From NCBI GenBank assembly GCA_051294905.1, contig CM119371.1, forward strand, positions 7,752,001 to 7,816,000: a DNA stretch of 64,000 bases. Reading direction: 5' to 3'. This document shows positions 3,563 through 61,975 of the stretch, in pieces; positions within the stretch are counted from its first letter, which is position 1; the number at the start of each line of letters is the position of its first letter. Source of the DNA: Botryllus schlosseri (taxonomy: Eukaryota). A program made the translations under genes and the position numbers. A model generated the notes under the pieces. It was given only the letters and a program-made list of their open reading frames with translations. It was not told the DNA's origin and searched no databases.

Positions 3563-3825
3563 CTTACATATTACATGTATCTCCCGACTGGTACCTAATA
3601 CCCACGTTTCTCGTAGCCTGGTAATATCAGCGCAGCCGTAGATATTCCAGTTTGCCACTCATCCGACGCTGACCAAACTACAGGCCACGTATGATAGTGA
3701 GTCGAAAATACTAAGCCCAACAGAAATGCAGCTGCGCTAATGACGGGCGACATAATTTTTCGACGTAGTAATCGGTGGTTAATTGCATCCTTGGTCGTGA
3801 TTATTCTCCACTTCGTTTGCTTGTC

Positions 3826-3940
3826 TATATATTGTGACGCGTCCCGCACGCGCGCCTAGACATCATTAAGTTTTTGTAGGTAGGTTTGGCATGCGATAGC
3901 CGTTGCTCGGTCACAGGTCTTGTGCTATGTATTTTTGTAG
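3826..3940 (+). promoter_or_regulatory. Putative core promoter, short non-coding first exon and 61-nt first intron of gene 1
   Basis: TATATA at 3826-3831, GC-rich CGCGCC, Inr-like TCATT 3863-3867, donor AG|GTAGGT after 3879, acceptor at 3940. The same order of elements recurs at 52563-52677. Confidence 0.45.
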
Positions 3941-4099
3941 AGATTTCGTCGACGTTCATTGTGTTGGAAATTACTACTCCATCTGGAGCGAAAGAGATGA
4001 CAATCAGCCCCAAGAAGCAATCTGATAGCGAGCTTTCCCCAGGCAAAATGGAGCCAGGCCCAAACGAGACTACTGTCATTGCTACGGATGACACCGACG
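3941..4099 (+). CDS. Gene 1 ATG-bearing exon (ATG at 3997)
   Basis: Acceptor atttttgtag ends 3940; donor GACG|gtaaga at 4099. The ATG and KQSDSE motif are conserved in the paralogous exon at 52678-52829. Confidence 0.75.
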
Positions 4100-7000
4100 G
4101 TAAGACCTTGCATAGATATGATATCTGCAAGTTGAATTATAGACTAGAAAACGTAGGTATCCCACGTATTCGTAAAAGGTAGGGGTTGAGTTACTCCGTT
4201 ATCCCTCCGTGAGCACGAGACAGCAAAACGTACAGTCGTACACACCTTTCGGATGGATACTTAGTTCCTCTTTACGTTGCGTACCGTTTCCACTATGTTC
4301 AGTGTTATTCTCGAAGCTGGGAAAAATCAGGCATCTGAGTCAGAGGTCTCAAACTCAAATGTGCTCGCGGGCAAACTTCCCAGATTTTGATGACGCCGCG
4401 GGCCGCAGCATCAATAATATAGAGGTATTCAATGTCTTCGAAGTGGGCCTTATTTGACGGGATGGAATTAACCGACAGAAAGCGAGTCGACCCAGCAGAC
4501 TGACATTCCACACGCGCATCGCGAAAATTTGATTTAACATTATAACATTTTACGCCAGGCCTGAAAAAAATCACATTAATAAGTATTTGAAAAAAATTGT
4601 TGTACTTGGTAGAGAGTGAGCCTGATTTGTCAAAAATATGAGATATAGAGACCATTCGAGAGGACTACAGCTTCTTGCCATCATCAAAACTGTCGCGTTA
4701 AGATTATGCAGTTAGCGGACGTTTGACGTGCCACAACTATAGCTAGAATAATTTAGAATTAACAAATGATTGATCTGATGTCACAGCATTTGAGCAGTAT
4801 AGTCTGATCCAGGTATTAGGTATACTCCTGATAATTAGGCTATTGATCATGTCATTCCCTTAGTTGCGATGATGCAAGATTGACCTTCGAACGTTAGAAC
4901 AGATCAATAACAACAAATGTCCAATTGTCGAACAATACATTGGTGTTACAGCGGTGGAGCGTACCATTACGTTGCTCTCCACCAGTAAGTGACGGTAATA
5001 ACATGAATAAAAGGGGTCCAAGTTTTATTAAAAAATTTCTGAATTATTACTAAATCACACGACACGCGATTAGTTTGCTGCTTGCATTGCTTGTAACCAA
5101 GTCACTCGGTGTCAAGTCGAATCATATTCATTTGGTCACCAAGTCAGTACGAGTTCGAGCGAAAGGTCGAGTCTAAGTCACGATATTCTGTCACGATTCA
5201 GTGTTTTATCATGTAAATAGGCAATGTGACCTATCCGATCTTCCACCGCATGGTTGCTTTCGAAACTGATGTGTTAGTGAAGTTGAATGCGTAGTCTTTC
5301 GGATTTTGAAGCAATTTAAGAGTGAATTACAAGTTTTCAAATGAGAAAAAAGATATATGGCACCTAAATATTGTCATATAATTGAACATCCAAAATGTCG
5401 GCGCGGGCCGCGTGTTTGAGACTTCTGATCTGAGTGATGCGTAACCGCGTCGTGGCATGAGGATTGGAGTCTAATATAGTATCAACAGTTACCACATAAG
5501 GATGTGGATGATTGGGAAGTTCAAATATCTATTTTCGATGGAAATATGAATATTTTCGATGGAAATATGAAATATCATGCTAGTTACACATCACAGCAAA
5601 CTAAATTAGGTATCCTTCCGACCATGCCAATTTCATTGCGCTTCGTGGCACTGGTGTGAATTAATAACTTCGCGGAAATGTCTTTTGTACTACTGTGCGT
5701 AGCATATCAGCTTTTTGCAATATGTTTGGGTGTTGCAATAGGGCAGGGCTGGCCAACCTTTTCAGCCAAAGGGCCACATTCGAACGACGAAATATTGCGC
5801 GGGCCACTAGCCGCGCCAAGCGCGAAAATTTTTCGAAGTTCATAGCTCAATAATATTGTCACTTGACTATATTGCAGGCCTGCAGTATATCGCTAGGTTC
5901 AGTTCGCCAGGGCTAGACTATTCAGCGCCTGGACATATCAATTTCGAAAGCTTCGGCCAACATGCGTCAATCATTTTGTGCCTAGGTTTCATAGTCGACG
6001 GTCTTTCTGCGAGCGCAAACGCTAGGTCGCATATGTTTAACAACACTTTGTATCGTAATCGAGAATATAGTTAGACTCAATCTGATACATTAGGCGTTCT
6101 TTCATCTTCACAAAGGGGTAACAACATTAAAAGCAAAATATCGAATGACTACATGTTGCGCGAAGGCTGTGGAAATATTTACTTTTGATAACTTTATCGC
6201 AAATTCTTCTTCTTTGTAGTGTACGAAGATCTACCACCGATCACCAAAGTGTGACTGGCTCATGGAAATGCCAATGAGTAGTAACTGATATTTTGATCAT
6301 CACATCTTAAGTGTTGCGGCGAGACTATTCAATTTTTTGGTTGGCCTTGCAAGGTCACAATCTGCAATTCATTTTTTTATAACATTACCAAGTTCGTATA
6401 TTACCTCGCGGGCCACTCAAAACCTTCTCGCGGGCCACATGTGGCCCGCGGGCCACGGGTTAGCCGGCCCTGCAATAGGTGTAGAAAGTAACGACACGGC
6501 ACTGTAATTTCAGTACTCGATAATTTCGCCTGTCATTAAGTCCGCCTTGCATCAATAAAATCAATGCTCGCTAAGGATTTGCTCGATTCAGAGTATTCCA
6601 AGCATGATGCACAGCCCTGGTTACACGTTGAACATATTCCCATGCGAAATGTTTTCCCGAGTGTATTTCCATAAGCTAGAATGCTCGATTGTGATATTGA
6701 TGTCGCAAAAGTAGACTGCAGGACCCCACTGGGCTGGCTTTAATCACGCGGTATCAGTCGTGAAATCCGCACCAACTGTACAGACGCATGCGTAGTAGTG
6801 TTCTTGCATATCCGCATACACAGCGTCACTTCATCGATCAATGAGTTTCGACAGGTCCCAATTTCATCCTTGACTGCATATAGTACAGAAATTCTCGCCG
6901 CTGTGGATTAGCACTTTATATCATCCACATCATCTTGAATTGTCAGGGAAAAACTCCTGCGAGCTGAATGACCCAGAAGCCGTTGAGCTAGCCGTTGAAT

Positions 7001-10000
7001 TTGAGATGAAAGGCGACTCAGGGCCGCAAGACGTAACCTACGAAGTCTCGGCCGCACCGAAGGAAGAAGCTGGTAATGTGAATTAGTTGCTGGACTGAAA
7101 ATTGTTCAAGTAGGCTACTAAATCTGTTCAATTATTAAAACTGTTCCAACTATACTAACAATGCGCTCTTCCCCTTTTCTCGGTGTGGTGAATCTTAAAG
7201 TCGTTTCTGCGAACTCGTGCACCACGTATGTGTAATTGTGTATACCTGATGGAATTCAATAAAGTTAGTAGCGGATAACTAATACGTCCGCATCTTAACG
7301 CAGAGCTGCTCACGGCCAATTTAGAAAGCTGATCAGGAAAAATGTCAGCATCTTCGAACGTCACCCGCTGATGTAAATCGACGCCTTTGCGTAACAAGTT
7401 TGTTGTGAACTCTAGTTGTGAATTGTGCAGTGTGAACCCCTTGCATAGTTGGTTGAACAGTGCACAGCGGCTGGTGAGTATTGTATTAGTGGCACTGCGA
7501 TGTGTGTACACAAATATAGATGCGTTTACACTGCCAATCGTATCTACAAATCGGGACTGACGTTGCAGTTACCGAGTACTTTAACCGCGACCATGGACCT
7601 TCCTTTCTAGATACTATTCCTAATGAACCAAGAATGGATCAAATGGTTTCAGAGGGCGAGCTTGAACCCGTGGACACTGGGACAGATTGCGACGAAGAAT
7701 ATTTGAAATCGCAAAGTATTGACAGAGCCGAGCCGGCAGAGTACGGTATGACTGTGATTAACTGGCTTGTTCTAATCGGTTGCCGGTGAACTCGGCACTT
7801 GGTGAGTTCGGCCGCACAAACTCGGCAATTGATGATCTCGGCACTTGGTGAATTCGGCCCTCGGGAAATTTTGTAATGAAGTGTATTAACAGCTATTAAT
7901 ATGAATTAATAAACTAATAATAGTATTATCAAGTGATTCCTCAATCTTGTAAGGAGGTCAGGGCATCCGTTGATCACGCAGTTACGGCATGATTAGATCA
8001 CGGATTGCGTAGCCGCGGGAAATAACGCAGCGCTCATATACCGACCACGACCACGCGCGGTCTGCTTGGAATCGATGGCGTGAGTGACGGGCGTGTGTCG
8101 TACTGTCGTGTAAGTTTAGAGAAGATGGATCTTGGCGTTGTATGTGAGATGGGAGCTGTGGAAGATCAAGCGGCGCTTCTTCGTTTATCGATCACGACAA
8201 GCCAGTGTTCCTCATCAACAAATGTTTCGCATGACCACGTCAAAATAAATTAATTTTTGCATTTGGAGAGACGATTCCACTCTGGGGTTAGGGTGTCTCG
8301 ATAACAGGGTTGAGGGATGCCAAGATTACGAAATCTACCGCGAGTCACGACACGTTTAAATTTCCTTTTTGATACTGTTCATTAATATTAAATGCATTTC
8401 TAATGCGAAGGTGTTCTAGTGCCAATTCCTCCAAGGGACGAGTTCACCAAGTGAAGAGCGTCGCGTTATTTCCCGCGGTTACGCAATCTGTGATCTAATC
8501 ACGCCGTGACTGTGTGATCTACGCATGCCCTAACCCCCGTACAACATTGACAACCACTCAAAGTGCCAAGTTCCCCGGCAAACATTCCAGTAACCAATCA
8601 TGGCTACAAGATCTACCACGGCCGAATTCACCAAGTGCCGAGTTTGTGTGGCCGAATTCACCAAGTGCCGAGTTCACTGGTAATCGTTCTAATCTACGTG
8701 CACTAATCGGCTTCGTGATCGTGATATTGCCTCCCATGATAGCAAAATGAATAGAACGACGTGTTGGCCCGACGTCAAGAAACACTACGAACACTAAACT
8801 ATATCCGTTATACGCCTAAGCATATATATCGGTCAAGTCAGGCTAAAAACCAATTGACAAAATATTCGGCCATATCACGTGAATTTCCATTTGACTCGTA
8901 GTACAAAGATTGCAGTTCGTCAATTTTTAGGGGTGAGGAAGTATTGTCATTGAACGGTGGTATCCAGGAAAAGGTTCTATCACTTATTCCAGAAGCAGGA
9001 ATAACATTTTTGGTGGGGACTGGACTGAGTTGTGAACCGCTGGTTTACGCGAACGCTAAAACGGGTCGGATTGAGTAATCATGTCGACACTTTGCTCATA
9101 TCTTCAAAACCAAAACCAAAACCATACTGGTATAAGCGACATTTTTAGTAGTAGCGGAGGAAGGGGTGTGTCATGTGTTCTTGGATTCTGTATTAAATTG
9201 TGTGAACACATCTATTTACCGTGTTACATTGTTAGACACGATATAAAGAGCGTCTACACATTATCAACATGTTTGAGTGTTGCAATACGTCCAATTGACT
9301 TGAGATTTCAAGGCTTCCCATGGTGTAAAAAGTAACGACACGGCACTACAATTTCAGTACTCCATAATATCGCCCGTCATTACTCCGCCTCGAATCAATA
9401 AAATCAATGCCCGCTACGGATTTCGATTCAGAGTATTCCAAGCATGATGGGCAGCCCTAGTTACACTTCGAACTCATTTCCCTGTGAAATGTTTTCCGGG
9501 TGAATTTCTTTAAGCTAGAATGGTTGCTTGTGATATTGATGTCGTAAAAGTAGACTGCAGGACCCCACTTGGCTAGCTCTAATCACGCAGTATCAGTCGT
9601 CTAATCCGCACCACACCAACATTTGCTGACATTCGTAGCATAGTGTGCTTGCATAGCCGCATGAGCGGTGTCACTTTATTGATCAATGAGTCGCGATGTC
9701 CCTACATTGATCAATGAGTCGCGACAGGTCCCAATTGGATCCTGACTACGCCAATGTACGTGCGATGTACATAAGTACAGTAATTCTCGCCGCAATAGAC
9801 GTGAATTTGCAGTTTATATAATCCACCTAATCTTGGCTTGTCAGGGAAAGCCTGCGAGCTGAATGACGCAGAAGGCGTTCAGCTACCCGTTGAATTTGGG
9901 ATGAACGGCGGTTCAGGGCCGCCTGACGTAACCTACGAAGTCTCGGCTGCACCGAAGGAAAAACCTAGTAATGTGAAATTTAGTGAACGAAGTTGGTTGC

Positions 10001-13000
10001 TGGACAGCAAATTGTTGAAGTGGCTACTAAACCTGTTCAAGTATTAATGTTCCGAGTCCAAACTCTTCCATTTTTCTCGGTGTGGTGAATCCTGAAGTCG
10101 TTTTGGGCCAACTCGTGCACCATGTTTAAACGTAATGGCATTCAATAAAATTAGTAGCGGATAACAAAAATACGACAGCGTCTTAACGCAGAGCTGCTGC
10201 TCACGACCGAATTAGAAAGTTGATCAGTATATATGTCAGCATCTTCTAACGTCACTCGCTCGATGTAAATCGACGCTTTTGTGTAATAAGTTTATGAACC
10301 CTCGTATGCCATTGTGAACTGTGGACCCCATGCATAGTTTGGTGAACCGTGCACAGCGGCTATGAGCACCGTATTGCTGGCATTCAATGTGTGTCCATTA
10401 ATATAGATGCGTATACACTGCCAATCGTATCTGCGAATCCGTACTGACGTTGCAGTCACAGAGTGCTTTAACCTCTACCGCGGACCTTCCTTTCCAGAGA
10501 CTATTCCGAATGAACCAAGAAGGGATCAAATGGTTGCAGAGGGCGTGCTTGAACCCGAGGATACTGGGACAGATTGCGACGAAGAATCTGCGAAATCGCA
10601 AAGTATTGACAGAGTCGAACCGGCACCCAACGGTATGACTGTGATTAACTGGCTTGTTCTAATCAACGTGCGGTAAACAGCTTCGCGGTCGTGATATTGC
10701 CTCCATTATAGCAAAACGAATAGAACGACGTGTTGACCCGACGTTAAGAAACACTACGAACACCCAACTATCTCCCATATACGCCTAAGTATATCGGCCA
10801 AGTCAGGCAGGCTAAAAACCAATTGACATAATATTCCCGCCGTATGACGTGAATTTCCATTTGACGCGTAGTACAAAGATTGCAGTTCGTCAATTTTATT
10901 CGACGAAAGCCATATGGCTTACGTCAGAAAACTAGGGGCGGGAAGTATTTTCATTGAAGGGTGGTATCCAGGAAAACGTTCCGTCACATGTTCCAGAAGC
11001 GGGAATAACATTTTTAGTGCGGGCTGTTAGTTGTGGACCGCTGGTTTACGCGAAAGCGGGTCGGATTGAGTAATCAACGTTAGCACTTTGCTCACGTCTT
11101 CAAAACCAAAACCATACTGGTATAAGCGACATTTGTAGTTGTAGCGGATGGAGGGGTGTGTAATGTGTTCTTGGATTCTATATTAAATTTGGGTGAACAA
11201 ATCTATGTACCGTGTTGTATTGCTAGACAGGATATAATAGAGCGTCTACACCAGGGGTTCTCAGCCTTTTCTTGGCCGTGGCCCATTTTCCGGTCTTATA
11301 ATGTGCTGTGGCCCACCTCTTATCTTGGAGTCATAATCCTGTTCAATGCGTGGTAATCGACGGCGCCGATATGCCTATTTCTCTAAATTATGCGCATTTT
11401 TCTCTAAATTTGCTGATGATATTCAAATGTAGACCTTTCGGCTCATGAAATCGCTAAGCGTGACGAAAACTTTCAAGTCGAATAAATATCCTCCAACAAA
11501 CGACCAACGAAATAATCTTGATCCATTTCGAGTTCCCGCAATTGGGGGTTTGGGTGCAGCAGTTACGGCCCTGGTAGATCATAGGCCAGGCCTGGGCAAA
11601 GTGCGGCCCGCGGGCCAAATGCGGCCCGCGAAGCCATTCTGTGCGGTCCGCGAAAGGTTGCTTGGAATTCATAACATTAAACCTGCTCTTTGAATGTTGA
11701 TACGTGGACTAAAACCATAGGCTGTATCAACTAAACAGGAAATTCGTTTACTTTGAAGCCTGTTCGTGTTCATTAATATGCCACGATTACGCTGCCTACG
11801 TACCTCGCATCCGTAATCCAGATTCAAAATAAAGGCAATGTGGCAAAGTATGAGTAACAATTAAATTCACAAGAAATCACTATTTCCATATAGTTTACGT
11901 CAAACCTTCTTTGTTTCCATTGTCACATTATGCATTTTACGGGTACACGTATTTAAATTGTTACGTAAGGCGTTTCCAAATCCGTAATTCGAAAAACAAA
12001 TCAATCAGAGAGCGCGATTACTATATGACCCATAAAAGATGAACGGGCATGTCAAAAAGAGAAAGCCGAGAGCTGAAATTCAAAGATGGTTTAGAGCACT
12101 AAATTGTATACTGGAGTAAACTGGGTAAACCCACCCTGTTAGTTTTTGCCGGTACGATTCGGCGAATTCACACATGCACGGTCCCCGGCCACGATGTTTG
12201 GCCAGTAAGATTTTAATTATGACAAAAACACGAAACAATCGGTCAAGGGAGGGCGAATTTCAGAAAAACGTCAAACTTCGCTCAACATCAAGGCTATTTG
12301 AGCTGCACACTGCTCGGAATACAGCAACCAAGACTAGCTTTGTACTATCCCATATACATTTCAGTGCAGTGGTTCTCGAACTGAGGGGCGTGAATGCATC
12401 AGAAAGGTTAGGCGCGAAGCTGAAGTAAATGATATTGTTTTCGCGCTCCGCGAGATTTAACCTCAGAGTATGCTTTATTGCTCCGTGTATTCTCTGACTT
12501 AGATATTACAGAATTCTCTCGTCAACAACCATAACCTGCCATGCCGTCAAACTATCCGTCGGGATTGCTAGCATGCTGGTTGCTCTTGTTAATATGTTGT
12601 GATATCATGATATCCCTTTTAGACACGTGTCTAAAAAAAAGTTTGAGAACCACTGTTTTAGGATTGGGGTTTAAAGAAAGTTAAAATGTATCATGTTTAA
12701 CATTGTTTCAAATCATGAAGGCAAATAGATATTTTTTAAATTAATCACCACTTTCTCATTACCTAACATCAACACATTCACTGAGCAGCACTTATTATTT
12801 AATATGTTATTTAGAGATAAAATTAAAATTCGCTGGAGAATACAGCTCAAATTTTTCACTCGGCCCGCCAACGTATTTTCTACTTCTCATTTGGCCCGTG
12901 GAGGAAAATAATTGCCCACCCCTGTCATAGGCTAAAACTACTGTGTAAATTATGATTGTCCGTTGCTCCATTCGGGACGCGAAACACAATGATCAAATCA

Positions 13001-16000: not shown

Positions 16001-19000
16001 CCGATCGACTTGTGAAAAGATTATCAATGTGAGTTGAAATAGCGGGCTTTGCCCATAGCCTCCAGGTTAATGTCACAATTGCAGATATCGCAATGTGCGT
16101 AACACTCGTCTTTACGCATGTTCATTTTAACTAATCAGAGTTAGCCTTATTAGTAGCTAAAACTATATGCGCGAGTGCAATATAATTTGGATAAATTTAT
16201 CAATGAATTAGCTTTATTACTTTTAACCAATGTGTAGACCGCGCCTTTTTCACTACGCAATAAATGTTGCCTTTCCCACAGCTTGAGCTTATTCTGCTGT
16301 AGATCAAACAGCATGAACCTGGTGGTACAGCTGTTTACTGCTAAAATGACGTCCGCTGCGGTAGCTTGGTACAGACGAAACTGCCCTAACTATATCACCA
16401 CATCGAAGACAAATCTTGTGGTGCATACGTCACGAGAGTTCCTTTCATTTATGATGTCATAAAATCTCAACGCAAAAGCATAATTTGAGAATATTTTGCA
16501 ACACAGATACCAGAGGAAAACGATCGAAGTTCGGTAGTGGTTGAAAATAAGACAAAATAAGGACGCAAGTCGAAAATAACGACATTTCTTAGAAATAAGG
16601 ACAGTTGAGTTTTCTAAGACGTAGCCCTTCAAAATAAGGACAAATCTTGGAAATAAGGACGGTATGGCAACCCTGATTATATTGGTGGCATTGCGATGTG
16701 TCTCCATCAATATAGATGCGTTTACACTGCCAATCGTATCTACAAACCTGTACTGACATTGCAGTTACCGAGTGCTTTAACCGCTACCATGGACCTTCCT
16801 TTGTAGATACTATTCCGAGTGAACCAAGAAAGGCTCGAATGAATTCAGAGGGCGTGCTTGAACCCGTGGATACTGGGACAGATTGCGACGAAGAATCTTC
16901 GAAATCGCAAAGTATTGACAGAGTCGAGCCGGCAGCGAACGGTATGACTGTGATTAACTGGCTTGTTCTAATCAACGTGTGCTTATGAGCTTCATGATCG
17001 TGATATTGCCCATCATTATAGCAAAATGAATAGGGCGACGTGTGGACCCTACGTTAAGAAACACGACGAAGACCAAATTATCTCCCATATACGCCCAAGT
17101 ATATCGGCCAAGTCAGGCTAAAAACCAATTGCCAAAATATTTCCGCCATATGTCGTGAATTTCCATTTGACGCGTAGTACAAAGATTTCAGTTCGTCAAT
17201 TTTATACGATGAAAACCATGGCTTACGTCAGCAAACTGGGGTGGGAAGTATTGTCATTGATGGATGGTATCCAGGAAAACGTTCTATCACAAATCCCAAA
17301 AGCAGGAATAGCATTTTTGGTGGGGGCCATTAGTTGTGGACCGCTGGTTTACGCGAAAGCGGGTCGGATTGAGTAATCAATGTCAGCACTTTGCTCACGT
17401 CTTCAAAACCAAAACCATACTGGTATACGCGGCATTTGTAGTTGTAGCGGATGGAGGGGGGGTGTGTCATGTGTTCTTGGATTTTATATTAAATTCGGGT
17501 GAACACATCTATGTGCCGTGTTGCCTTGATAGACACGATATAATAGAGTGTCTACACATTATCGCGTGTAACATCATCCATGTTTATTAGTTGGCTCCGG
17601 CGTAATCGCAGTGATGTTACAAACATTAAGTCACATTTATCAAATTTAAATTCTGTTACAGACGAATCGCCTCCTGAAAACGAGGACGTCAGGGAATCTG
17701 AATTCCAGGAACTTCCAGGCGACTGCAAGACAGATTTCAAGGAACCCAACGACAGCAGACCGGACACGCCGAAGGAAACTTATAGCGAAGTTGCTGCGGC
17801 GAGAGACCAAAGTAAGTTGTTACTCAATGTCAATCACGCTTCAGTAGCTAACGTAGGCTATATATGGAAGTTCCTCCAGGCTATTACCATGTAATAGTAA
17901 ACACTGCCGCTCCAGAAGGCCAGCTAGTAATGGGACGAAGGCCATCACAGTGGTTATCGAACGTTCTTCAGTGCTACTGAATTTTGTATTCACTACGCTC
18001 AAGCGGCCCGAGCGTCACAGATTGAAAAAATAGCATCCTGCGTTCTTTGGGATAGAAAAAGTCCTGACAACCAGTAGTAGCGCGATCCGTTGATTTATTA
18101 CAAAAACATCATTTAATCAGTGTCAATCTTGTCATCCAAACACCGAGTTCGCTATCTTCAACCCGTATCAATGCGCAATGCGTACATTAAAAGTGATTTT
18201 GAAGCCTTTTTTAGTCGCGTAAGAAATTTTCCAAGGTCTCGGATTCCTAAAATCTCGAACAGAAATGATTCTGCAAAAACCCCCATCAAACAAACCGTAC
18301 CGACGCCCTTAACATCAGAAAGATAGTCGTTACTTACACAACGCCTCTCACGTTTCCTACGTATGACCCCACGCTAGTGCTCCAATAGAAAAACCGAAGG
18401 CCAGGAAAACTTCACTTGGCATTGACCAAATTTCATAATACCAGGGTAGGCACAATTTCCATGGTTGACAAATATTCTAGTGAAAACATGTCTACGCCAG
18501 CCATTCCTTACGTAATACCTGACACAATGGCCTTGGAAACGTAAATACCAGGCGTAATAGTGACCCCGCATGAACAAATTTCTTATACTGCAAGAAATTC
18601 AGCTGATTTTAGCGCTGCAGATTTTATGCAAAGTTGGAGATCCCTGAGACGCGCGATTTCCTATTCTGCTCTTTATTATTATTATTATTATAAGTAAAAA
18701 TCGTGATAGTAGCGCTTATCACGGCACAGGTTTTGTGCGCCACTTCTATACTTGTTTTTACAATGCATTTGCATTATCCAAATATATATAGCATCGCTCA
18801 GTTCTATGGGTATACCAATATAATATATAAGGAGCTAGCCGACAATATACAAACACGACATTTGTTTATACAAATAATGAATATACAACATGTATTAGCT
18901 ATACTGTATAAGTCGTCCCGAAGATATCACGAACTGTACAACATTATCCAATATCCAACGTCTTTCAACTCCCAATTTATTCGGCTCACTCGCGCAGCAT

Positions 19001-22000
19001 GATGTAGTTGTATCCTTTGATGTTGACATCTCACACAATGTAACAAAAACTGCTCTACAGATTCTTCTGCATTACATTGCTGACATAGTGGAGTCTCAGA
19101 ACAACGGATCTTATGCAGATGTCGATTCAGTCTGCAATGGCCACTTCTTAATCTCAGTAGAATTACGTCCCTTCGCCATGTTCCAATTCTGTTCTTTAAT
19201 GAGTGCTGTTTTGACACAAATTTATACCCTCTGCAACCCATGTTTCGGTGGTGGCGACCTATACATTAAAAACTACTGCTTTATCTTTCCGGCGAAATGT
19301 ACAATGACAAAACGTAAGCGTGCATTTCTAGGTCAACGTAACGCTCATCCTTGTTACAGAGATTTCCGTAAATCGCCAATTCGCTGCATTCGCGAACTTT
19401 AGTATTATCTTTCCGGAACGTATCCACCCACATTTATTGGCTCGAAGAAATAGTACTTTGCTCCGCGATTTGACGAATATTCGACTTCATAATCCTAAGT
19501 TTTCGCGTGAACAGAGGTGGCCAAGCTCGCATTTGTGACAAGCATTTTGCCGAACCGGAAGAAGCACCGTTGTGAAACCAGTCAAAATATTTTTTAACTT
19601 TGGATTGTGACAGAGGTTTGCAAGATGTCTGATGCAAACAACGAGAAAACCGAGGCCAAACTAAAGAAGACGGTTGAAGACGAATCGGGAGGCACGCAGG
19701 ATGACCATGTTGATGATCCGACTAATTCTTGTGGTAAGTGGTGCGGCATCACCATCTGACATTGTACGGACGTACAGTCGTACACCCATTGGAATCCGTC
19801 GATATATACGCACCTGTTCAATGGTTTGAATTGCATATTCAAGTTAGGTATTTTGCAAATGCAAATTAGTGACCCTATGGATCCTAATAAAAGGCCTGGA
19901 GATTACTAAATAATTGAACTTTCCGAGGTATGATATGGATTCACGTGCCGAAGCTAATCTGTCTCTCAAATTTACATCAGTATTAGTCGAATTCGGATTT
20001 AGAGAAAGTCCGATTGTTCAAGTGCAAAGTTGTGGCATAGTAAGCTATATCATTTTCATTTTTAATCTGAACCATGCGTAGGGCCTATGCTACTTATGCG
20101 TGGTACATAAATAGACAGGCTTACAAACAGGCTTCACAGTAAACGGCTTTACCGTTTACTCCTTACAGCCTATGGTGCTGAGGTATTATGAATGAACGAT
20201 GGTATCCATTAAATCTAGTGATTGCAATTCTAACTGGAATAAAATATCATAACGAATTAATGCGGTCAATAATATCGGTTCTTGTTAATATTGCATGTAT
20301 TCCGACGCACATTTGTACCAGAGTGTTCGGCGCCTGTCGATCAGTTAGGGCCAACATGTCGTCGCTGACTATCCTCGGGTGCTCTCCTATTTGCCGACAA
20401 TGCATATGTCTGAGTGTCTATGGGCGTGCATTAGAAAACAGACGGTACTTTAAAACATGTAGGAAACAACGTTTAAACAATGCCTTTTGAAAAAACGATT
20501 ATTTCAAAACGTTGTGTTATGATGCCACAGTTGTTTGAATGCTTCCGAAAAACATGCATGCTCTAAGCCCAAGGACGATTTTCACCCAGTGTAGTCGACG
20601 TATACGGTGACAGTTGTTTGAATACTTTCGAAAAACATGCATGCTCCAAGCCCAAGGACGATTTTCACCCAGTGCAGTCGACGTATACAATATGGGGGTA
20701 GATATAGATCATTGGTACGGAAGGAGTGTGCGGATGATGACCAGATTGACTACCGAGCGCCCACGGGCCGTAAAAATGCTGCATATCGATGGTCTATTTA
20801 TGGCAGTGGTCGGAGGCTCTTCGTCGAAGCCATATTTACCTTATATTTTCAATTTTCAGTCGCGAACCACTGTGACGTCACAATTGAAAATTCGTTACCC
20901 ATGGCTAAAAAATCACAAACAAAATCAATAACAAACATGTTGAACTTGTCTGTTTAGACTTTAATTTTGTTGTAAATTAAATCCTATGTAGGTGCGTATA
21001 CACGGGCTAGGAGATAGCTGGGGCCTAAAAGCCAGCGCCGCGGGCTGCACACCACTATTGCCTTGGACATCCCAACGGCTATAATTGATACCGGGAATGT
21101 TCCGTTCTCCCATAATTGTTGATAAACTCAATACTGTATATTATAGGTGTATCTTTTAATTCGGGATGGCTACTAAAGCCCAAGAAATCTAGAGGTACAT
21201 AATCGTGAGAAGCGCGAAAACAGTTCCAAGTTGAATCAAACCGCATGGAAATAAATCTACTTGAGGATATGTGATTATTTCGGTTGTCAACATCCCAAAT
21301 TTCGCGGTCAGGCTATTCAACCGTTTCGTTGAGAATTTAGTGTGAACACATCTACGCAAAGTTTCGCACTGCCAGACACGTGCGACTTTGCTGTGACAAG
21401 AAACGGTGCGTCTACAAATCTTGCCATGTAACGTCTTCCGTGTTGACTATGGTAGCTCTGCAAACTGCGGTATCGCCGCTGTGATGCTGTAAACAATGAT
21501 TGACCTTTCATGAAATTTATTTTGTGTCACAGATGGATTGCATCATGTATATGAGGAGATCAGCGATTCTGGATCCCAGAAAATTCCGCATGACTGCAAG
21601 AAGCGATTGAAGAAATCCATCGAGCGCAAACCAGGAAAGCCACAGAAAATGAAAGGTTGCTATGGCTGAAGTCACGCCACTTCTCGATATTCATTTCTGT
21701 GGTCCACGCTAGAGCTCTCTAATGAAACAGCTGTCAACCAGACCTTACTAGATATAATACCCAATTTCTTAAGCTTCAAGTTCAAAAGCCACTGTCCACG
21801 AATACCTTGTGATTCGGCTCACTGATCGTATCCATTGTTCTTGTCGTATCCGCGAGACGAATTGTCGAGTTGCAATCCAAATTTTTTATGCAAAATATAA
21901 ACTGTTCAGCTGACATTTATGAAAACATTTACTCGTCTCTAAGAGAACCCCATTTGTGAAGCACGTTTAACTCTGTGATATTCAGTACTGTACTCAGTAC

Positions 22001-23491
22001 TGTACTCTTGCTGCACAGAGTTTTTCAAGATGTCTGAGATGTTCAAGTTGTCTTTAGACGCAAACCCGAAGAAAACCAAGGCGATCGAAGACAAACCAGG
22101 AAAGGACGACCATGGTCAGTGTTGATTTCATTTCCGTATCGTAACTCTTTATCTTGCATTGCCCACCAGCATTGTATATTGCATCGATTGAAATGCGTCA
22201 ATATGCACGCACAGAATAGATAGAATTGATATCCACATGCCCGGTATGTTCTAGAATCGACATCAAAGCTCACTTTAATAGTTATCATCTAATTCAGTGG
22301 TCAGTCAATCAGTGGTACATAACCTTTTTTGTCTTTGCCAGTCAAGACCTTACAGACCCCGAATAATTCTAGTTAAAATGTATCTTAATTATCCTACAAC
22401 CGTCATCAGTCATCAGTCTTCGTGCAAATGTTGACTTCAAGTTCATAACAGTAAGCGGAATCCGACGTTTGTCGTGCAAGGCAAAGGAGTCTGCATGTCT
22501 GAAGCAAGTATTATAATACATGGTCTTGTCTTGGAATACCGCGCCTTCGAAGGGATATGAACGAGAACCGAAAATGCCATTCAAAAATATAGGGGGAGGC
22601 GAAGGGAAGCGTAACAGTTCCCACAACGATTTTATGCATGATCGCAACACGAGACATGCATGACATTAAGAAACAGATTTTTCAATGAACATGTCCCGTC
22701 CAGCCTATCGATTTCTGGTCAACAGCCCATATCGAATCGTGAAATCGCGGTTACGTCTATAACAGCAAAATACGAATTCCTATGGCGCAGGTTTCAACAC
22801 CTGAGACCTACTAGGTAAATACTTCTGTGTAGAATCATTTTCAAGTGACGGAATGTTCACAAATATGAGACCGACAGCTTTAGATGCAGAAAAATTGTGC
22901 AAACATTACGGGGTTACAAGGTTATACCCTTTCTAAAGTAGAAAGTAGTTTGAGGATCGGATATGTTTGCGTTGCTTCCACGAGTAAAATTATTGCCGTA
23001 AAGGCGAGGGTTCATGTTTTCCGCAGTAGAAAATACTGTAGACCCTATAATTTTAATTGGTAGATCACCTTCCAGTGACTAGGGCCCCTGATCGGGCACC
23101 ACTGGAATAAATGGTAGAAGCGGCATCGATGGTGAAATTATACGTATCGCTCTCGATATTATGAATCTAAAGTGGCGTGCTTGAGTCCCGCCCGATAGGA
23201 CGTGGGATTCGCGAGTTCGACTGATTAGGCAACTGTTGTGTAGTCTTGCCGGTTTTAACAATCCCTTTGACGTCTGGACTGTCAATTTTAGATACTCGGA
23301 AGCCGAATCCGACCAATGCGAAGGCCGAGAAGAAGCCTAAAACCTGTATCGAGATAGTGTGGGCGAATATGAACGAAGAGGAAATAATATTGGCTTTTCT
23401 CACAATCTTCTTATTCGTGTTGTTGACGGGTTTTCTTATCTATGCCACGGTAATTGAAATCATGCGGGTGGAAACCGAAGAAAGTGGCTGA
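3997..23491 (+). CDS. Gene 1: unrecognised ~523-aa acidic, probably disordered protein with a single C-terminal transmembrane helix (tail-anchored topology); 12 coding exons
   Basis: Coding exons 3997-4099, 6947-7072, 7611-7745, 9845-9967, 10498-10632, 14885-15010, 16807-16941, 17662-17811, 19614-19733, 21533-21655, 22019-22114, 23292-23491. All have AG/GT boundaries and every intron is phase 1. All internal exon lengths are multiples of 3 (126,135,123,135,126,135,150,120,123,96), there are no stops, and the total is 1572 nt. Starts MTISPKKQSDSELSPG; ends EEEIILAFLTIFLFVLLTGFLIYATVIEIMRVETEESG*. No family recognised. Exon chaining is inferred without transcript data. Confidence 0.75.
4341..5427. 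mobile_element. hAT (Buster/Charlie-like) MITE
   Basis: TIR CAGAGGTCTCAAAC/GTTTGAGACTTCTG; GCGGGCC subterminal motifs; perfect TSD atctgagt. Confidence 0.9.
5744..6472. mobile_element. hAT (Buster/Charlie-like) MITE
   Basis: TIR CAGGGCTGGCCAACC/GGTTAGCCGGCCCTG; TSD caataggg/caataggt; absent from tandem units 2 and 3. Confidence 0.9.
6947..7072 (+). CDS. Gene 1 exon A1 (GKNSCELNDPEAVELAVEFEMKGDSGPQDVTYEVSAAPKEEA)
   Basis: ttgtcag| ... |gtaatg; 126 nt, phase 1-1; conserved in three tandem units. Confidence 0.8.
7611..7745 (+). CDS. Gene 1 exon B1 (DTIPNEPRMDQMVSEGELEPVDTGTDCDEEYLKSQSIDRAEPAEY)
   Basis: ccttcctttctag| ... |gtatga; 135 nt, phase 1-1. Confidence 0.8.
7778..8685. mobile_element. 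Mutator-like (MULE) non-autonomous element
   Basis: G-starting TIRs built of AACTCGGCACTTGGTGA repeats; second internal inverted pair (~7960-8030 / ~8464-8530); 9-bp TSD gttctaatc, present once at the empty sites in units 2 and 3. Confidence 0.85.
9845..9967 (+). CDS. Gene 1 exon A2
   Basis: ttgtcag| ... |gtaatg; 123 nt. Differs from A1/A3 by an in-frame 3-nt deletion, which supports coding status. Confidence 0.8.
10498..10632 (+). CDS. Gene 1 exon B2
   Basis: ccttcctttccag| ... |gtatga; 135 nt, phase 1-1. Confidence 0.8.
11587..12924. mobile_element. Nested hAT MITE (itself containing a CAGTGGTTCTC...GAGAACCACTG element at 12367-12655)
   Basis: TIR CAGGCCTGGGCAA/TTGCCCACCCCTG; perfect TSD tcataggc. 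Confidence 0.88.
13487..14003. mobile_element. Nested hAT MITE with ACTCGA/TTCGA subterminal repeats
   Basis: TIR TAGGGCTGGGCA/TGCCCAGCCCTA; perfect TSD cttatgac; related ends at ~26375-26455 and ~62730-62805. Confidence 0.9.
14885..15010 (+). CDS. Gene 1 exon A3
   Basis: ttgtcag| ... |gtaatg; 126 nt, phase 1-1. Confidence 0.8.
15420..16675 (-). mobile_element. Internally deleted hAT transposon with transposase relic
   Basis: TIR CAGGGTTGCCA/TGGCAACCCTG; AAATAAGGAC subterminal repeats; perfect TSD attatatt. Minus strand 16110-15720 reads YAHCDICNCDINL (BED-like finger), AAEGTWAFHTVKHQQSF...IFPDSNIANTFSSARTKT...VLAP, then FSILVDASNH (first catalytic Asp), broken by frameshifts. Confidence 0.9.
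16807..16941 (+). CDS. Gene 1 exon B3
   Basis: ccttcctttgtag| ... |gtatga; 135 nt, phase 1-1. Confidence 0.8.
17662..17811 (+). CDS. Gene 1 exon C (DESPPENEDVRESEFQELPGDCKTDFKEPNDSRPDTPKETYSEVAAARDQ)
   Basis: ttctgttacag| ... |gtaagt; 150 nt, phase 1-1. Confidence 0.8.
18673..19240 (-). mobile_element. 5'-truncated non-LTR retrotransposon (I-group LINE) 3' end
   Basis: ORF 18927..19241 has RLRSGHCRLNRHLHKI..SETPLCQQCNAEESVEQFLLHC, the C-terminal CCHC knuckle region of I-group ORF2, followed by a 3' UTR and (TAA)n tail at 18673-18691. Confidence 0.85.
19614..19733 (+). CDS. Gene 1 exon D (KVCKMSDANNEKTEAKLKKTVEDESGGTQDDHVDDPTNSC)
   Basis: ttgtgacag| ... |gtaagt; 120 nt, phase 1-1; homologous to 61859-61975. 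Confidence 0.8.
20528..20688. repeat. Local direct tandem duplication, 83-bp period, 2 copies
   Basis: cagttgtttgaat...gtcgacgtatac at 20528-20605 and 20611-20688 with few mismatches. Confidence 0.9.
21533..21655 (+). CDS. Gene 1 exon E (DGLHHVYEEISDSGSQKIPHDCKKRLKKSIERKPGKPQKMK)
   Basis: ttattttgtgtcacag| ... AAAG|gttgct (weaker donor); 123 nt, phase 1-1. Confidence 0.7.
22019..22114 (+). CDS. Gene 1 exon F (EFFKMSEMFKLSLDANPKKTKAIEDKPGKDDH)
   Basis: tcttgctgcacag| ... |gtcagt; 96 nt, phase 1-1; resembles exon D. Confidence 0.75.
23292..23491 (+). CDS. Gene 1 terminal exon with transmembrane helix and stop
   Basis: caattttag| acceptor, phase 1; ~25-residue hydrophobic run IILAFLTIFLFVLLTGFLIYATVI; TGA at 23489-23491. 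Confidence 0.75.
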
Positions 23492-23802
23492 TAACGCGGC
23501 CGTCATAAAATGTAATGAGCCGCTGTACAGCAACACAATGCGTCCTGTGATCTGTGTCGACGTGTGTATGTCAGATGTATACCATTGCCCAGACGTAAAT
23601 CTGTTCGAGATTGAGCGTTTGCTTCGTGTATTGATGATTTGATAAGTTGCAAACGCTGTCGATGAAATTCTGGATGTAGTGGTGTTGCAATATAATGTGC
23701 CGAATGCATTGGATCTGTATTTACGTCTGAGTTGAGCCGTAACCTAGTTTAAAGTGCGACACTGCGGTATCTCGGAACCTGCAGTCTGCTGCGGGGCTGG
23801 AA

Positions 23803-61700: not shown

Positions 61701-61975
61701 GAATTGAATCCTACCACCGTTAGTGCACTGTACTGTAATGTGCGTCCATGGTCGGCACATTTTGGCACGATGCCATATCTCAAACAAGCTCGACCACTTT
61801 CGTATATCAAGTAAATTTCTTTCGCAACAGTGAAATTTATGGATTTTCACATATGCAGAGCGATATGCGATGTCTGGTGATCCATACGAGAATGAGGCAA
61901 TGCAGAAATGGCTGAGGGAAAACAATCAAGGAGGGTCAAAAGTCAAATATATCTTTGATCTGACCGATCGCAATA
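52730..61975 (+). CDS. Gene 3: diverged paralogue of gene 1, 5' part only (continues beyond the window)
   Basis: Exons 52730-52829 (MASRFQKQSDSERFIATRRKGTNEARNVTTGDD, donor gtaagg), 58795-58971 (177 nt, AGFEMPIDTHEKEAKLKKIRDQVIIEKIMDEVILETVKFVDGKRGSSKVECAAVKTGWN) and 61859-61975 (117 nt, KRYAMSGDPYENEAMQKWLRENNQGGSKVKYIFDLTDRN). All junctions are phase 1. The first and third exons align at DNA and protein level with gene 1 exons 3941-4099 and 19614-19733. Confidence 0.72.
53850..55840 (-). mobile_element. Internally deleted hAT (Tip100/TTF-zinc-finger type) transposon relic
   Basis: TIR CAGTGGCGGCTCGT/ACGAGCCGCCACTG; perfect TSD actcgagt. Minus strand has decayed RLGHYQP...LTY-EDKDAL (N-terminal, ~54510-54300) and RLDALDVLTI...LILGIPDFNDLVVEH (dimerisation domain, ~54155-54030). 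Confidence 0.82.
54879..55400. repeat. Diverged ~198-bp tandem repeat, ~2.6 copies
   Basis: acgaaatta...acttgg...atact...catcg..aaaatc recurs at 54879, 55077 and 55276. Confidence 0.75.
56498..58412. mobile_element. Old composite hAT MITE carrying family A interior (minus strand, ~57320-58112)
   Basis: CAGTGGTTCTTAAC/GTTTGAGAACCACTG; degenerate TSD ctatagca/ctctagta. Confidence 0.65.
56895..57060 (-). mobile_element. Possible tRNA-derived SINE heads (two A-box/B-box pairs in tandem)
   Basis: Minus strand: TGGTGGTAGTGG (57049-57038) then GGTTCGACTCC (57006-56996); TGGTCAGTGG (56960-56951) then GGTCCGAGTCC (~56917-56907). No clean cloverleaf. Confidence 0.35.
59104..60200. mobile_element. hAT MITE with TCCGGAA subterminal repeats
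   Basis: TIR TAGGGTT(G/A)CCATA; perfect TSD aaataaat. Confidence 0.9.

Follow-up and report, generated by a model that had tools for sequence, protein, structure and literature searches.

Transmembrane adaptor proteins of vertebrate lymphocytes, namely LAT, PAG/Cbp and NTAL, have a transmembrane (TM) helix close to the N-terminus, a short extracellular segment ahead of it and, on the cytosolic side, a long C-terminal tail, together with several conserved tyrosine docking motifs. KASH proteins carry a C-terminal TM helix and, in the lumen, roughly 30 further residues that end in a conserved PPPX. At the level of gene structure, Patthy's exon-shuffling rules associate symmetric class 1-1 exons, combined with an intron in phase 1 behind the first coding exon, with modular proteins of the extracellular type; these also have a signal peptide and modules that fold on their own, usually with disulfide bonds. 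Tail-anchored proteins lack an N-terminal signal peptide or signal anchor, expose the N-terminal domain to the cytosol and the C-terminus to the lumen, and are inserted after translation and independently of SRP, through TRC40/GET, EMC or a related route. They are defined, in PMC2854689, by a single TM helix at or near the C-terminus and a short hydrophilic tail, and the helix exits the ribosome after termination. According to PMC12393879, very hydrophobic TM domains are clients of TRC40/GET, and the length and hydrophobicity of the TM domain sort proteins with a tail anchor along the secretory pathway. Here, we analysed a gene, W1, at positions 3826-23491 of a 64-kb window (the whole stretch of DNA under analysis). 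The reading that we favour, with somewhat better than even confidence, is that W1 is one gene of a clustered family, grown by exon-pair duplication, and that its product is tail-anchored with a disordered docking or spacer chain.

W1 is a real, weakly expressed protein-coding gene. The model, rebuilt from the sequence alone, has 12 coding exons on the + strand that run from the ATG at 3997 to the stop codon at 23489-23491 (Table 1). Each acceptor is a pyrimidine-rich ..AG and each donor is GT, each of the 11 coding introns splits its codon after base one (phase 1), and each of the ten internal exons has a length divisible by 3. With the donor at 19733 and the acceptor at 22019, the exons sum to 1572 nt (523 codons and a stop). 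Thus, the rebuilt model bore out the first-pass annotation, which had described a 523-aa multi-exon gene invisible as a single open reading frame, with ten symmetric phase 1-1 internal exons and with its coding exons scattered among transposons; the introns do hold the repeats at 13480-14010 and 15430-16682. The product is 510 aa long with the exon 11 acceptor at 22058 that is used in RNA. Only about five of the introns are independent, because a two-exon unit present three times accounts for six internal exons, and E10/E11 are an older copy of E8/E9. Phase-1 introns make up about 30% of introns, and with this share finding phase 1 at all five independent introns would be an unlikely chance result (roughly 0.3^5).

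Table 1. Positions of the features of W1 and its surroundings in the window.
Feature	Positions	Strand	Remarks
TATA-like box TATATATT	3826..3833	+	within promoter block conserved among paralogs
Putative 61-nt 5'-leader intron	3880..3940	+	would follow short non-coding leader exon ending 3879
Exon E1	3941..4099	+	coding from ATG 3997, 34 codons + 1 base; phase-1 donor G/gtaaga
Tandem unit copy 1, with 1A and 1B	6478..9317	+	repeat families in register
Exon 1A, A-type cassette	6947..7072	+	126 nt, phase 1-1
Exon 1B, B-type cassette	7611..7745	+	135 nt, phase 1-1
Tandem unit copy 2, with 2A and 2B	9322..11251	+	repeat families in register
Exon 2A, A-type	9845..9967	+	123 nt; alternative acceptor 9851 in one contig
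Exon 2B, B-type	10498..10632	+	135 nt; donor RNA-confirmed, X1 joint 10632>14885
Dispersed repeat, about 520 bp	13480..14010		spacer between unit copies 2 and 3; 7861 first-look genome candidates
Tandem unit copy 3, with 3A and 3B	14419..17557	+	split by 1.25-kb dispersed repeat 15430-16682
Exon 3A, A-type	14885..15010	+	126 nt; acceptor RNA-confirmed, joint 10632>14885
Exon 3B, B-type	16807..16941	+	135 nt; donor RNA-confirmed, joint 16941>17662
Exon E8, C-type cassette	17662..17811	+	150 nt; acceptor RNA-confirmed; donor joint 2 nt off
Exon E9, D-type cassette	19614..19733	+	120 nt; 19730 a further possible donor
Exon E10, second C-type cassette, old E8 copy	21533..21655	+	123 nt; donor RNA-confirmed
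Exon E11, second D-type cassette	22058..22114 in RNA	+	57 nt; 22019 in earlier model
Last exon T (E12)	23292..23491	+	TM helix 23384-23455; 11-residue tail 23456-23488; TGA 23489-23491
W2, second family member, first coding exon	52730..52829	+	E1 profile match E 1.2e-4

The predicted junctions were compared with public RNA data, consisting of three raw-read runs and one contig set (X1 contigs; X6 and X8 reads), for which 15 of 24 joints were listed. Among these 15, at least five of the 11 W1 junctions were found, two of them in altered form. Exact matches were 10632>14885, 16941>17662 (an X1 contig and two X6 reads) and 22114>23292 (one X1 contig and five X6 reads). The junction 17811>19614 was reported with a displacement of 2 nt, as 17809>19612, and the donor at 21655 was joined to 22058 rather than 22019 (one X1 contig and 12 X8 reads). 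The X8 reads came from a stranded run with the first mate on the - strand, which agrees with a + strand gene. The RNA check thus upheld part of the proposed splicing and corrected the exon 11 acceptor to 22058; the acceptor at 22019, a homologue of the E9 acceptor, is still intact. The other six predicted junctions, including those of 1A, were not among the 15 of 24 joints listed. A 534-nt X1 contig with a single depth of 5.57 bears the E8>E9, E10>E11 and E11>E12 joints, and its length implies the E9>E10 junction as well. Among the RNA contigs and reads compared, none covered all W1 exons, and a search of public RNA runs listed no run as covering 13700-23600.

Exon skipping had also been anticipated, and one X1 contig does skip 1A and 1B in frame: its joint 4108>9851, the only E1-linked joint listed, connects the E1 region to exon 2A, but the intron is TG..AG with a donor that is non-canonical in this reference. 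Another X1 contig (7610-7772), which has no mismatch, extends 27 nt beyond the 1B donor into the intron. RNA depth over W1 was low: no bin of the three raw-read runs exceeded 5.4, and the deepest bins were intronic repeats. An X1 contig over the last exon showed six allele differences, of which three in the helix are swaps between hydrophobic residues (F>I, F>V and L>I). Another two are synonymous, and the sixth is an E>Q change immediately N-terminal of the helix. In E8, the RNA contig data contained one allele indel, of 3 nt.

The 5' end of the gene was compared among paralogs. An alignment of six paralog 5' regions revealed the conserved blocks GTGGTTAATTGCA, CGTGATTA and CTATATATT, and placed a conserved TATA promoter about 170 nt upstream of a conserved ATG. 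A donor-like site, AAG/GTAGGTT, and a pyrimidine tract with an AG acceptor are conserved in W1, W2, P1a and P1b, and a short spliced leader exon probably lies ahead of E1. No RNA read was seen across this putative leader intron. Splicing out 3880-3940 would remove the upstream ATGs at 3891 and 3926, and 3941-3996 is free of any ATG. The start codon and the N-terminus MxxSPKKQSD are conserved in the paralogs. In-frame stop codons lie upstream of the ATG in W1, W2, P1a, P1b and P1d, the interval contains no in-frame ATG, and in P1d the stop codon is immediately 5' of the ATG.

The W1 product has a pI of 4.36, with 120 D+E versus 60 K+R and a net charge of -60. The only hydrophobic stretch is formed by residues 476-499 of 510 (24 residues), after which an 11-residue tail remains. 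The best 19-residue hydropathy was 2.96 at residues 476-494, compared to -0.01 for the next best, before residue 440. The first 30 residues had a mean hydropathy of -0.78, and judged by hydropathy and the conserved start the product is without an N-terminal signal peptide or signal anchor. The absence of a hydrophobic N-terminus, the single C-terminal TM helix and the short tail agree with the tail-anchored topology proposed earlier and with the definition in PMC2854689. In a charge-hydropathy plot, the product fell on the disordered side, and the stretch 1-475, which is acidic and of low hydrophobicity, is probably disordered. AlphaFold, when given the A module alone, returned a low-confidence model with no secondary structure (mean pLDDT 66, pTM 0.17). 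The A and B cassettes have one cysteine each.

The orientation in the membrane was approached through the paralogs, whose C-terminal tails are 22-40 residues long. N-glycosylation sequons gather in these tails: four of five in P1a and three of four in P1b lie within a tail of 27-31 residues, versus an expected 0.007-0.008 per residue. Read from the translations, there is one further sequon in the P1d tail, two in P2 and one in P3; the W1 tail has none. The sequon-rich paralog tails fit a lumenal C-terminus. Basic residues flank several paralog TM helices on both sides, so the positive-inside rule leaves the orientation undecided. We infer that the N-terminus of the W1 product is cytosolic and the C-terminus lumenal.

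The first-pass annotation had regarded W1 as an orphan. As a lone gene this does not hold, since W1 belongs to a clustered family with at least seven loci within about 0.85 Mb of the same contig, and an A-type exon also occurs in two open reading frames (ORFs) of other assemblies. The family shares a plan of six exons, E1-A-B-C-D-T, with phase-1 introns and AG/GT sites, and paralog genes with this order are compact (10-11 kb). The second member in the window, W2, has a first exon translation beginning MASRFQKQSDSE, a phase-1 donor G/gtaagg, a promoter that aligns with other members and at least four D-type exons. By the predicted exon content, W1 is the expanded and longest member, and W2 has instead amplified the D cassette. 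TM-terminal exons ending in ...ESG/SG are present in P1a, P1b and P1d; for P2 and P3, the T exon was assigned by hydropathy and position only. The T exon of W1 is only 22% identical to paralog T exons. In P1a and P1b, a cysteine takes the place of the A-cassette tyrosine; at the C-type position, W1 E8 has Asn and P1a has Cys instead of tyrosine. The family is lineage-specific, fast-evolving and clustered on one chromosome.

Growth through exon duplication, as suggested previously, can be read directly from the layout of W1, which is (A-B)x3, from a tandem genomic unit of 2-3 kb, followed by (C-D)x2, with E8/E9 giving E10/E11. The 300-bp B segment occurs three times genome-wide and no more. The dispersed repeat at 15430-16682 gave 1767 first-look candidates in the genome; the one at 13480-14010 has numerous copies, 89-92% identical, spread over many contigs, and RNA/contig depth there is very high. 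The A-B triplication is recent, with a Ks of 0.06-0.12. E10 matched the C-type profile at E 2.3e-5, the DNA at 17607-17761 and 21477-21632 (the E8 and E10 regions) is 70% identical, and 19610-19632 and 22015-22037 (the E9 and E11 acceptor regions) are 91% identical. The C-D duplication is older than the A-B triplication. Since the cassettes are all phase 1-1 with lengths divisible by 3, each duplication preserved the frame. A comparison of the A and B profiles by hhalign gave a probability of 85.7%, which is suggestive only, and the C-type profile matched neither of them.

No match to a known family, fold or function was found for the W1 product with Pfam, profile searches and AlphaFold on the A module. 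Pfam gave no match for the translations of six of the 12 W1 exons and the P1a T exon, with only sub-threshold TM noise (Ferlin_C, DUF4405 and DUF6737), and Rfam gave no match over the whole window. When 1.84 billion representatives were searched by HMMER with the A profile, two of the nine matches were real, both unnamed ORFs of 46-48 aa. These ORFs (P0002 and P0004) are from other public assemblies and contain an A-type exon at 55-66% identity with the tyrosine kept; the other seven matches (P0001, P0003 and P0005-P0009) were judged by eye to be repetitive, unrelated proteins. A word-seeded search with the A profile in 'near' mode found P0002 and P0004 and no others. In 'longer' mode, exon 1B found nothing, and the B profile gave 5538 candidates with none at E <= 1. 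Apart from the two single-exon ORFs, no family protein was found among about 15 billion predicted proteins, and the ESM Atlas had no usable match to the last exon. This agrees with the earlier view of an acidic product that lacks a recognisable fold, and neither Pfam on the exons nor the A-profile HMMER search returned a full-length match to a known one. No report of such a family was among the full-text literature matches listed, which is weak evidence of its absence from print. FFAT, LIR, ITIM/ITSM and PPxY motifs were considered by eye and dropped; they were without conservation across paralogs. A KASH identity was also rejected, as the family tails end in ...EESG, ...QESG, ...TQSG, ...QEND and ...EEIE, and there was no Pfam KASH match.

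Between P1a and P1b, exons were 80-93% identical compared to 44-88% for intron flanks, all exon gaps were multiples of 3, and the coding Ka/Ks was 0.76, with Ka > Ks in the T exon. W1 and P1b gave a Ka/Ks of 0.66 (Fisher p = 0.036). A comparison of the three A-B units of W1 gave 1.1-1.6, so the extra copies show no purifying selection on residues. With Ka/Ks values of 0.66-1.6, selection is weak. It is conceivable, but unlikely, that W1 is transcribed and near-neutral, as a decaying or young gene in which the cassettes are tolerated and the anchor is inherited from functional paralogs. The high values among the units, the low RNA depth, the loss in W1 of the long sequon-rich paralog tail, the odd non-canonical E1 joint and the read-through at the 1B donor would all fit such a gene. 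However, open frames and canonical sites are kept in 12 of 12 exons, the unit exons have 0-1 indel (3 nt) and none that breaks the frame versus 2-8 in 300-nt flanks, the TM-helix alleles stay hydrophobic, the sole E8 indel is 3 nt, and the Ka/Ks against P1b is 0.66. That the exons are split over at least two transcripts, such as one from a 5' gene with E1-3B and one from a 3' gene with E8-E12, would explain why no contig or read covers them all, but is hardly credible given the joints that connect 2B to 3A (10632>14885) and 3B to E8 (16941>17662), and given that the E1-A-B-C-D-T order is kept in the compact paralog genes.

Two other readings concern the long acidic region. A missing upstream signal-peptide exon would turn the product into a type I protein with an extracellular acidic class 1-1 region and a very short cytoplasmic tail. 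The phase 1-1 exons with a phase-1 intron after the first coding exon, the single cysteines of the A and B cassettes, a hydrophobic translated leader and an upstream in-frame Met in P2 point that way. Nevertheless, this is very improbable, since the conserved TATA promoter adjoins the conserved start at a distance of about 170 nt, five members have in-frame stops upstream of it, the P1a and P1b sequons gather in the C-terminal tail and not in the N-terminal region, and the A module alone lacks a confident fold. Alternatively, the cytosolic region could be a tyrosine-phosphorylated docking platform in which the cassette number sets the count of SH2-binding YE(V/E/N)x motifs. YEEI and YxN are SH2 motifs, and tyrosines in an acidic context are found in three cassette types: DVTYEVS three times in the A cassette, VYEEI in E10, IYEDV in P1b and RYEEA in P1d in the C type, and DPYENE and DPYENV in the D type of W2. 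Both foreign A-type ORFs retain the tyrosine. In contrast, it is replaced in the A cassettes of P1a and P1b and in the C-type exons of W1 E8 and P1a, and the motif copies are not independent because most are duplicates, which makes this specific role rather doubtful. A broader form, which we also regard as a long shot, is that the family consists of chordate-lineage tail-anchored signalling adaptors with phosphotyrosine and acidic docking motifs on a disordered cytosolic chain, whose valency is reset by phase-1 exon-pair duplication and skipping, with the small glycosylated tail in the lumen or outside. If so, valency would be reset quickly in evolution, perhaps between individuals or isoforms, and the topology would be a mirror image of the vertebrate LAT/PAG adaptors.

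Under the favoured reading of a tail-anchored product with a duplicated disordered chain, W1 is one gene of a tunicate-type genome, with a TATA promoter, probably a spliced short leader exon and a coding region in 12 exons, and it grew by tandem duplication of genomic segments with two exons each. The TM helix, 11 residues from the C-terminus, would exit the ribosome after termination, so that insertion of the product would be post-translational, as for other tail-anchored proteins. From its position and hydrophobicity, insertion would most likely be into the ER via TRC40/GET, and the product may later travel along the secretory pathway. The cytosolic part may then serve as a multivalent region for docking or spacing, tethered to the membrane, in which the number of short motifs follows the number of cassettes, which would make the product a membrane-tethered disordered scaffold.

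As it stands, this is a lineage-specific family under weak constraint, and of moderate, not extraordinary, interest. The W1 locus is a clean and datable case of protein growth via exon-pair tandem duplication with introns of one phase, and it defines an unannotated gene family that was clearly missed by gene finders. What is unusual is that the duplicated region is predicted to be an intracellular disordered chain and not extracellular folded modules. If the family members are membrane-tethered docking scaffolds, the differences in cassette number among paralogs would be a simple natural change of valency.

Compared with the class 1-1 shuffled modules described by Patthy, the W1 cassettes are likewise symmetric in phase 1-1, so that duplicating or skipping them keeps the frame, but they are low-complexity acidic segments of about 40-50 residues with no predicted fold, and there is no signal peptide. 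The W1 product resembles LAT, PAG and NTAL in being a membrane-tethered, acidic, probably disordered and putatively cytosolic chain with several tyrosine motifs, and some paralogs share TM-adjacent cysteines with them. In contrast to these adaptors, its topology is reversed, with a C-terminal anchor (residues 476-499 of 510); moreover, the motifs lack conservation among the paralogs, and there is no homology. Like emerin and LAP2beta, discussed in PMC12393879 and examples of tail-anchored proteins with a disordered cytosolic region and a hydrophobic anchor of the TRC40/GET type, it has no signal peptide, a very hydrophobic TM helix of about 24 residues at the extreme C-terminus and a short tail. 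It differs from both in showing no sequence similarity to a named family and no LEM or other folded domain, and in paralog tails that are 22-40 residues long and rich in sequons.

The 12 coding exons of W1, the gene studied, were rebuilt on the forward strand at 3997-23491 of the window from stop-to-stop frames and splice-site positions alone. All 11 acceptors are a pyrimidine tract ending in AG, all donors are GT (GTAAG or GTATG in most), all 11 introns are in phase 1, with the codon split after its first base, and every one of the 10 internal exons is a multiple of three. With donor 19733 and acceptor 22019, the exons summed to 1572 nt, which makes 523 codons and a stop, the figure given in the first-pass annotation; its model was thus recovered. 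Its proposal of a multi-exon gene with phase-1 symmetric exons was thereby confirmed. The exons are called, in order, E1, 1A, 1B, 2A, 2B, 3A, 3B and E8 to E12; A, B, C and D denote cassette types, and T the last exon, which encodes the transmembrane (TM) helix and tail.

Contigs of an older set (X1) and raw reads from three RNA runs (X6, X8 and X10) were aligned to 3700-23600, and 15 of the 24 joints were listed. Three of these were exact predicted junctions, written as donor>acceptor: 10632>14885 (X1), 16941>17662 (X1 and two X6 reads) and 22114>23292 (X1 and five X6 reads). The joint 17809>19612 corresponded to E8>E9 with a displacement of 2 nt, as would result from one differing base at the end of the exon. 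The predicted E10 donor at 21655 was joined to an acceptor at 22058 instead of 22019, in X1 and in 12 X8 reads with four start points; all 12 had their first mate on the reverse strand, as expected for forward-strand RNA in the usual stranded libraries. The exon model therefore held overall, but this one boundary was corrected, giving a 57-nt exon 11 and a product of 510 residues. Acceptor 22019, still intact, is homologous to the E9 acceptor and corresponds to it in position (19610-19632 versus 22015-22037, 91% identity). Both 22019 and 22058 may be in use. The E8>E9, E10>E11 and E11>E12 joints shared one depth, 5.57, which is also that of a 534-nt X1 contig covering E12; they were therefore taken as one contig, which implies the E9>E10 junction. 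Among the 15 joints listed, E1>1A, 1A>1B, 1B>2A, 2A>2B, 3A>3B and E9>E10 were absent. Mapping of the junctions with RNA thus met five of the 11 predicted ones among the joints listed (one 2 nt off and one with the other acceptor), but no record among the X1 contigs and the X6, X8 and X10 reads at 3700-23600 spanned the whole gene. The depth of the raw runs was low, at most 5.4 in each of 30 bins, with intronic repeats as the highest bins.

Two further X1 contigs were observed in the 5′ half of the gene. One joined 4108 to 9851, covering E1 from 4081, extending 9 nt beyond its GT donor and continuing at a site 6 nt inside 2A. The reading frame is kept across this joint, 1A and 1B are left out, and the first two bases of the intron would be TG in this reference; an allele-specific donor, an artefact or a rare isoform may lie behind it. 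The other (7610-7772, without mismatches to the reference) started one base before 1B and ran 27 nt beyond the 1B donor, a hint that splicing sometimes bypasses this donor, or else that the piece derives from pre-mRNA or DNA.

The exon order of W1 reflects duplication. Repeat analysis revealed a 2-3 kb genomic unit in three copies (see table), and a 300-bp B segment occurred exactly three times in the 495-Mb assembly searched, always within W1. Furthermore, E10 matched the E8-type exon profile (E 2.3e-5), E11 matched the E9-type exons, and 17607-17761 was 70% identical in DNA to 21477-21632, including about 55 nt of upstream intron. The three A-B units together with the likeness of E10 to E8 and of E11 to E9 give the layout E1, (A-B)x3, (C-D)x2, T. 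The A and B profiles matched each other in hhalign (probability 85.7%, E 5e-6, 27 columns), so these cassettes may be old copies of one another as judged from their sequences, and the C profile matched neither A nor B in hhalign. Because the exons are duplicates, only about five introns are independent. Phase 1 accounts for near 30% of introns, and five of five in this phase would be unlikely by chance (about 0.3^5).

The W1 introns are full of dispersed repeats. The repeat at 13480-14010 gave 7861 first-look candidates genome-wide and that at 15430-16682 gave 1767; the latter has copies of nearly full length on other contigs. Within the former type, an abundant repeat of about 520 bp, 60 nt at 13511-13572 were replaced by the same 15 letters in reads of two RNA runs and in one contig; the variant is common in this repeat family and is no feature of W1. 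An intronic open frame on the reverse strand (18927-19265) had a weak match to zf-RVT, the reverse transcriptase zinc-binding region (14.8 bits, below cutoff), and is probably a non-LTR retrotransposon remnant.

Related loci were sought with six-frame genome searches using the exon translations, after which 180 kb were fetched around the matches and analyzed with tblastn and exon HMMs. The genome matches were weak and all lay on the same contig (C1), 0.27-0.83 Mb downstream. The family loci are co-linear and share both their exon order and the phase-1 AG/GT sites. Around the A exon of P1c, neither E1 nor a B, C or T exon was detected; this locus may be a fragment of a gene or a strongly diverged member. 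W2, the second member starting in the window, has at least four tandem D-type exons of phase 1-1, at 61.8 kb (61834-61975), 64.6, 67.8 and 73.7 kb, of which only the first lies inside the window; it extends to about 73.9 kb on the window scale, and the 20 kb that follow the window did not reveal its last exon. It shares the conserved promoter and the N-terminus MASRFQKQSDSE, and its D-type exons carry DPYEN motifs. The P1a and P1b products have 284 and 281 residues, respectively, with a pI of 4.43. Since W1 has (A-B)x3 and (C-D)x2, W2 at least four D-type exons and P1a and P1b six exons each, different members amplified different cassettes. Between W1 and W2, an open frame at 37327-37626 on the forward strand resembled TM5-loop-TM6 of a rhodopsin-type receptor (Pfam 7tm_1, 21.1 bits, not reaching the cutoff of 30.5), and a GPCR gene may lie there.

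Loci related to W1 on contig CM119371.1 (C1) and duplicated units within W1. W2 and the unit copies are in window positions, the other loci in contig coordinates.
Feature	Position	Strand	Content	Basis
P1a	C1:8071126-8081557		six exons	tblastn + exon HMMs
P1b	about C1:8085823-8097195		six exons	tblastn + exon HMMs
P1c	C1:8114817-8114951	+	lone A exon, intact phase-1 sites	
P1d	E1 at C1:8126396; T exon C1:8131498-8131740		E1, C-type exon, T exon	tblastn + exon HMMs
P3	B exon C1:8195972-8196076	-	B exon and candidate T exon	
P2	near C1:8579000	-	E1-like, A, B and C-like exons and candidate T exon	
W2	first exon 52730-52829	+	second member, in window	
Unit copy 1	6478-9317		one A and one B exon	repeat analysis
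Unit copy 2	9322-11251		one A and one B exon	repeat analysis
Unit copy 3	14419-17557		one A and one B exon; split by 1.25-kb repeat	repeat analysis

Searches outside the genome gave no annotated full-length family protein, whether with Pfam (nothing above threshold for the exon translations tested), with the word-seeded protein search (nothing found among longer proteins) or with the A profile in a full HMMER search. The latter, against 1.84 billion representatives, returned nine matches at E <= 0.001. Seven were judged by eye to be unrelated repeat proteins and were dropped. The two that remain, P0002 (48 aa) and P0004 (46 aa), are each clearly an A-type exon translated on into its flanks; both stem from Logan assemblies, and each is the sole member of its cluster. 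Their best matches in the B. schlosseri genome were the W1 A exons at only 55-66% identity, so their source must be a different organism or a strongly diverged haplotype. The description of W1 as an orphan was consequently wrong for the gene, which has relatives on C1, but right for the family, which has no name and no annotated member.

An alignment of the regions upstream of the start codons in six members showed a conserved promoter block ending in CTATATATT, a TATA-like box at 3826-3833, where the first-pass annotation had placed the gene start. About 45 nt downstream is a conserved AAG|GTAGGTT site, followed by a pyrimidine tract and AG (3940|3941 in W1). This pattern suggests that the leader has a short exon, followed by an intron of 61 nt at 3880-3940. 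Removal of this putative intron deletes both upstream ATGs; no RNA read for splicing of the leader was seen among the joints listed at 3700-23600. An in-frame stop lies upstream of the start codon at 3997, with no other in-frame ATG in between, and this start codon is homologous in W1, W2, P1a and P1b; the ATG of P1d comes immediately after a stop codon. The homologous ATG, the in-frame stop before it and the conserved promoter block leave little room for a missing signal-peptide exon.

The 510-residue RNA-supported product is acidic (pI 4.36, 120 D+E versus 60 K+R) and hydrophilic (GRAVY -0.99), and falls on the disordered side of the charge-hydropathy plot. The A module alone was predicted with a mean pLDDT of 66, a pTM of 0.17 and no secondary structure, a weak test given the shallow alignment and the short piece. 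There is a single hydrophobic stretch, with a 19-residue hydropathy of 2.96 at 476-494 compared to -0.01 for the next best before residue 440; it forms a 24-residue helix (IILAF...ATVI) followed by EIMRVETEESG. The TM-terminal exons of P1a, P1b and P1d end in ...QTQESG, ...QTQSG and ...QSQESG, and the candidate T exons of P2 and P3 were assigned by hydropathy and position only. The proposed tail anchor is thus well supported, both by sequence logic (one C-terminal helix and a short tail) and by the paralogs. According to PMC12393879, very hydrophobic TM domains are clients of TRC40/GET, and sorting along the secretory pathway depends on how long and how hydrophobic the TM domain is; on this basis, ER insertion and possibly onward traffic are predicted for the W1 product. 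The paralog tails have 22-40 residues and carry N-x-S/T sequons: 4 of 5 sequons in P1a and 3 of 4 in P1b fall within the tail, against an expectation of about 0.2 there at a rate of 0.007-0.008 per residue, and the translations show one in the P1d tail, two in P2 and one in P3. The 11-residue W1 tail has none. This enrichment is compatible with a lumenal C-terminus (N-in/C-out), and basic residues on both sides of several paralog helices leave the orientation undecided by flanking charges.

Comparison of P1a and P1b showed 80-93% identity in the exons and 44-88% in 200-nt intron flanks, with all exon gaps in multiples of three and a Ka/Ks of 0.76. For W1 and P1b (E1+A+B+C), Ka/Ks was 0.66 (pS 0.48, pN 0.37, Fisher p = 0.036). 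Among the three W1 A-B units it was 1.1-1.6 at a Ks of 0.06-0.12, which suggests that these young copies lack residue constraint; their exons had at most one indel (3 nt), and their 300-nt flanks two to eight. The one indel seen in E8, between an X1 contig and the reference, was also 3 nt. In the last exon (23291-23488), 15 of 198 positions differed between an X1 contig and the reference, compared to 0-5 per 163-222 in the listed intron pieces, so the anchor exon seems unusually polymorphic or converted from another copy. The six differences shown are F>I, F>V, L>I and two synonymous changes in the helix, and E>Q just before it. We read the family as real coding sequence under weak purifying selection, which acts chiefly to keep the frame, a hydrophobic anchor and a small number of positions within the motifs.

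The conserved positions form short linear patterns: DAEGV..VEF.M..G.GP.D..Y.V..AP.E in A, DEE.SKS(Q/H).(I/V)D(R/Q)V.PA.N in B and P.YE(E/D)(V/I)..S.F...P.D in C. Tyrosines in an acidic context recur, as YEV in A, YEEI/YEDV/YEEA in C-type and YENE/YENV in W2 D-type exons, and are Cys or Asn in some members. Our best guess is that the W1 product would act as a membrane-tethered, disordered, multivalent docking or spacer chain, with a number of motifs that would vary through duplication, and possibly skipping, of cassettes. A role as a phosphotyrosine adaptor, suggested by these motifs, is the boldest version of the docking-chain idea and is improbable. We regard W1 and its relatives as a nameless family of predicted tail-anchored membrane proteins, a kind already known, in which duplication of exon pairs can be traced with textbook clarity.
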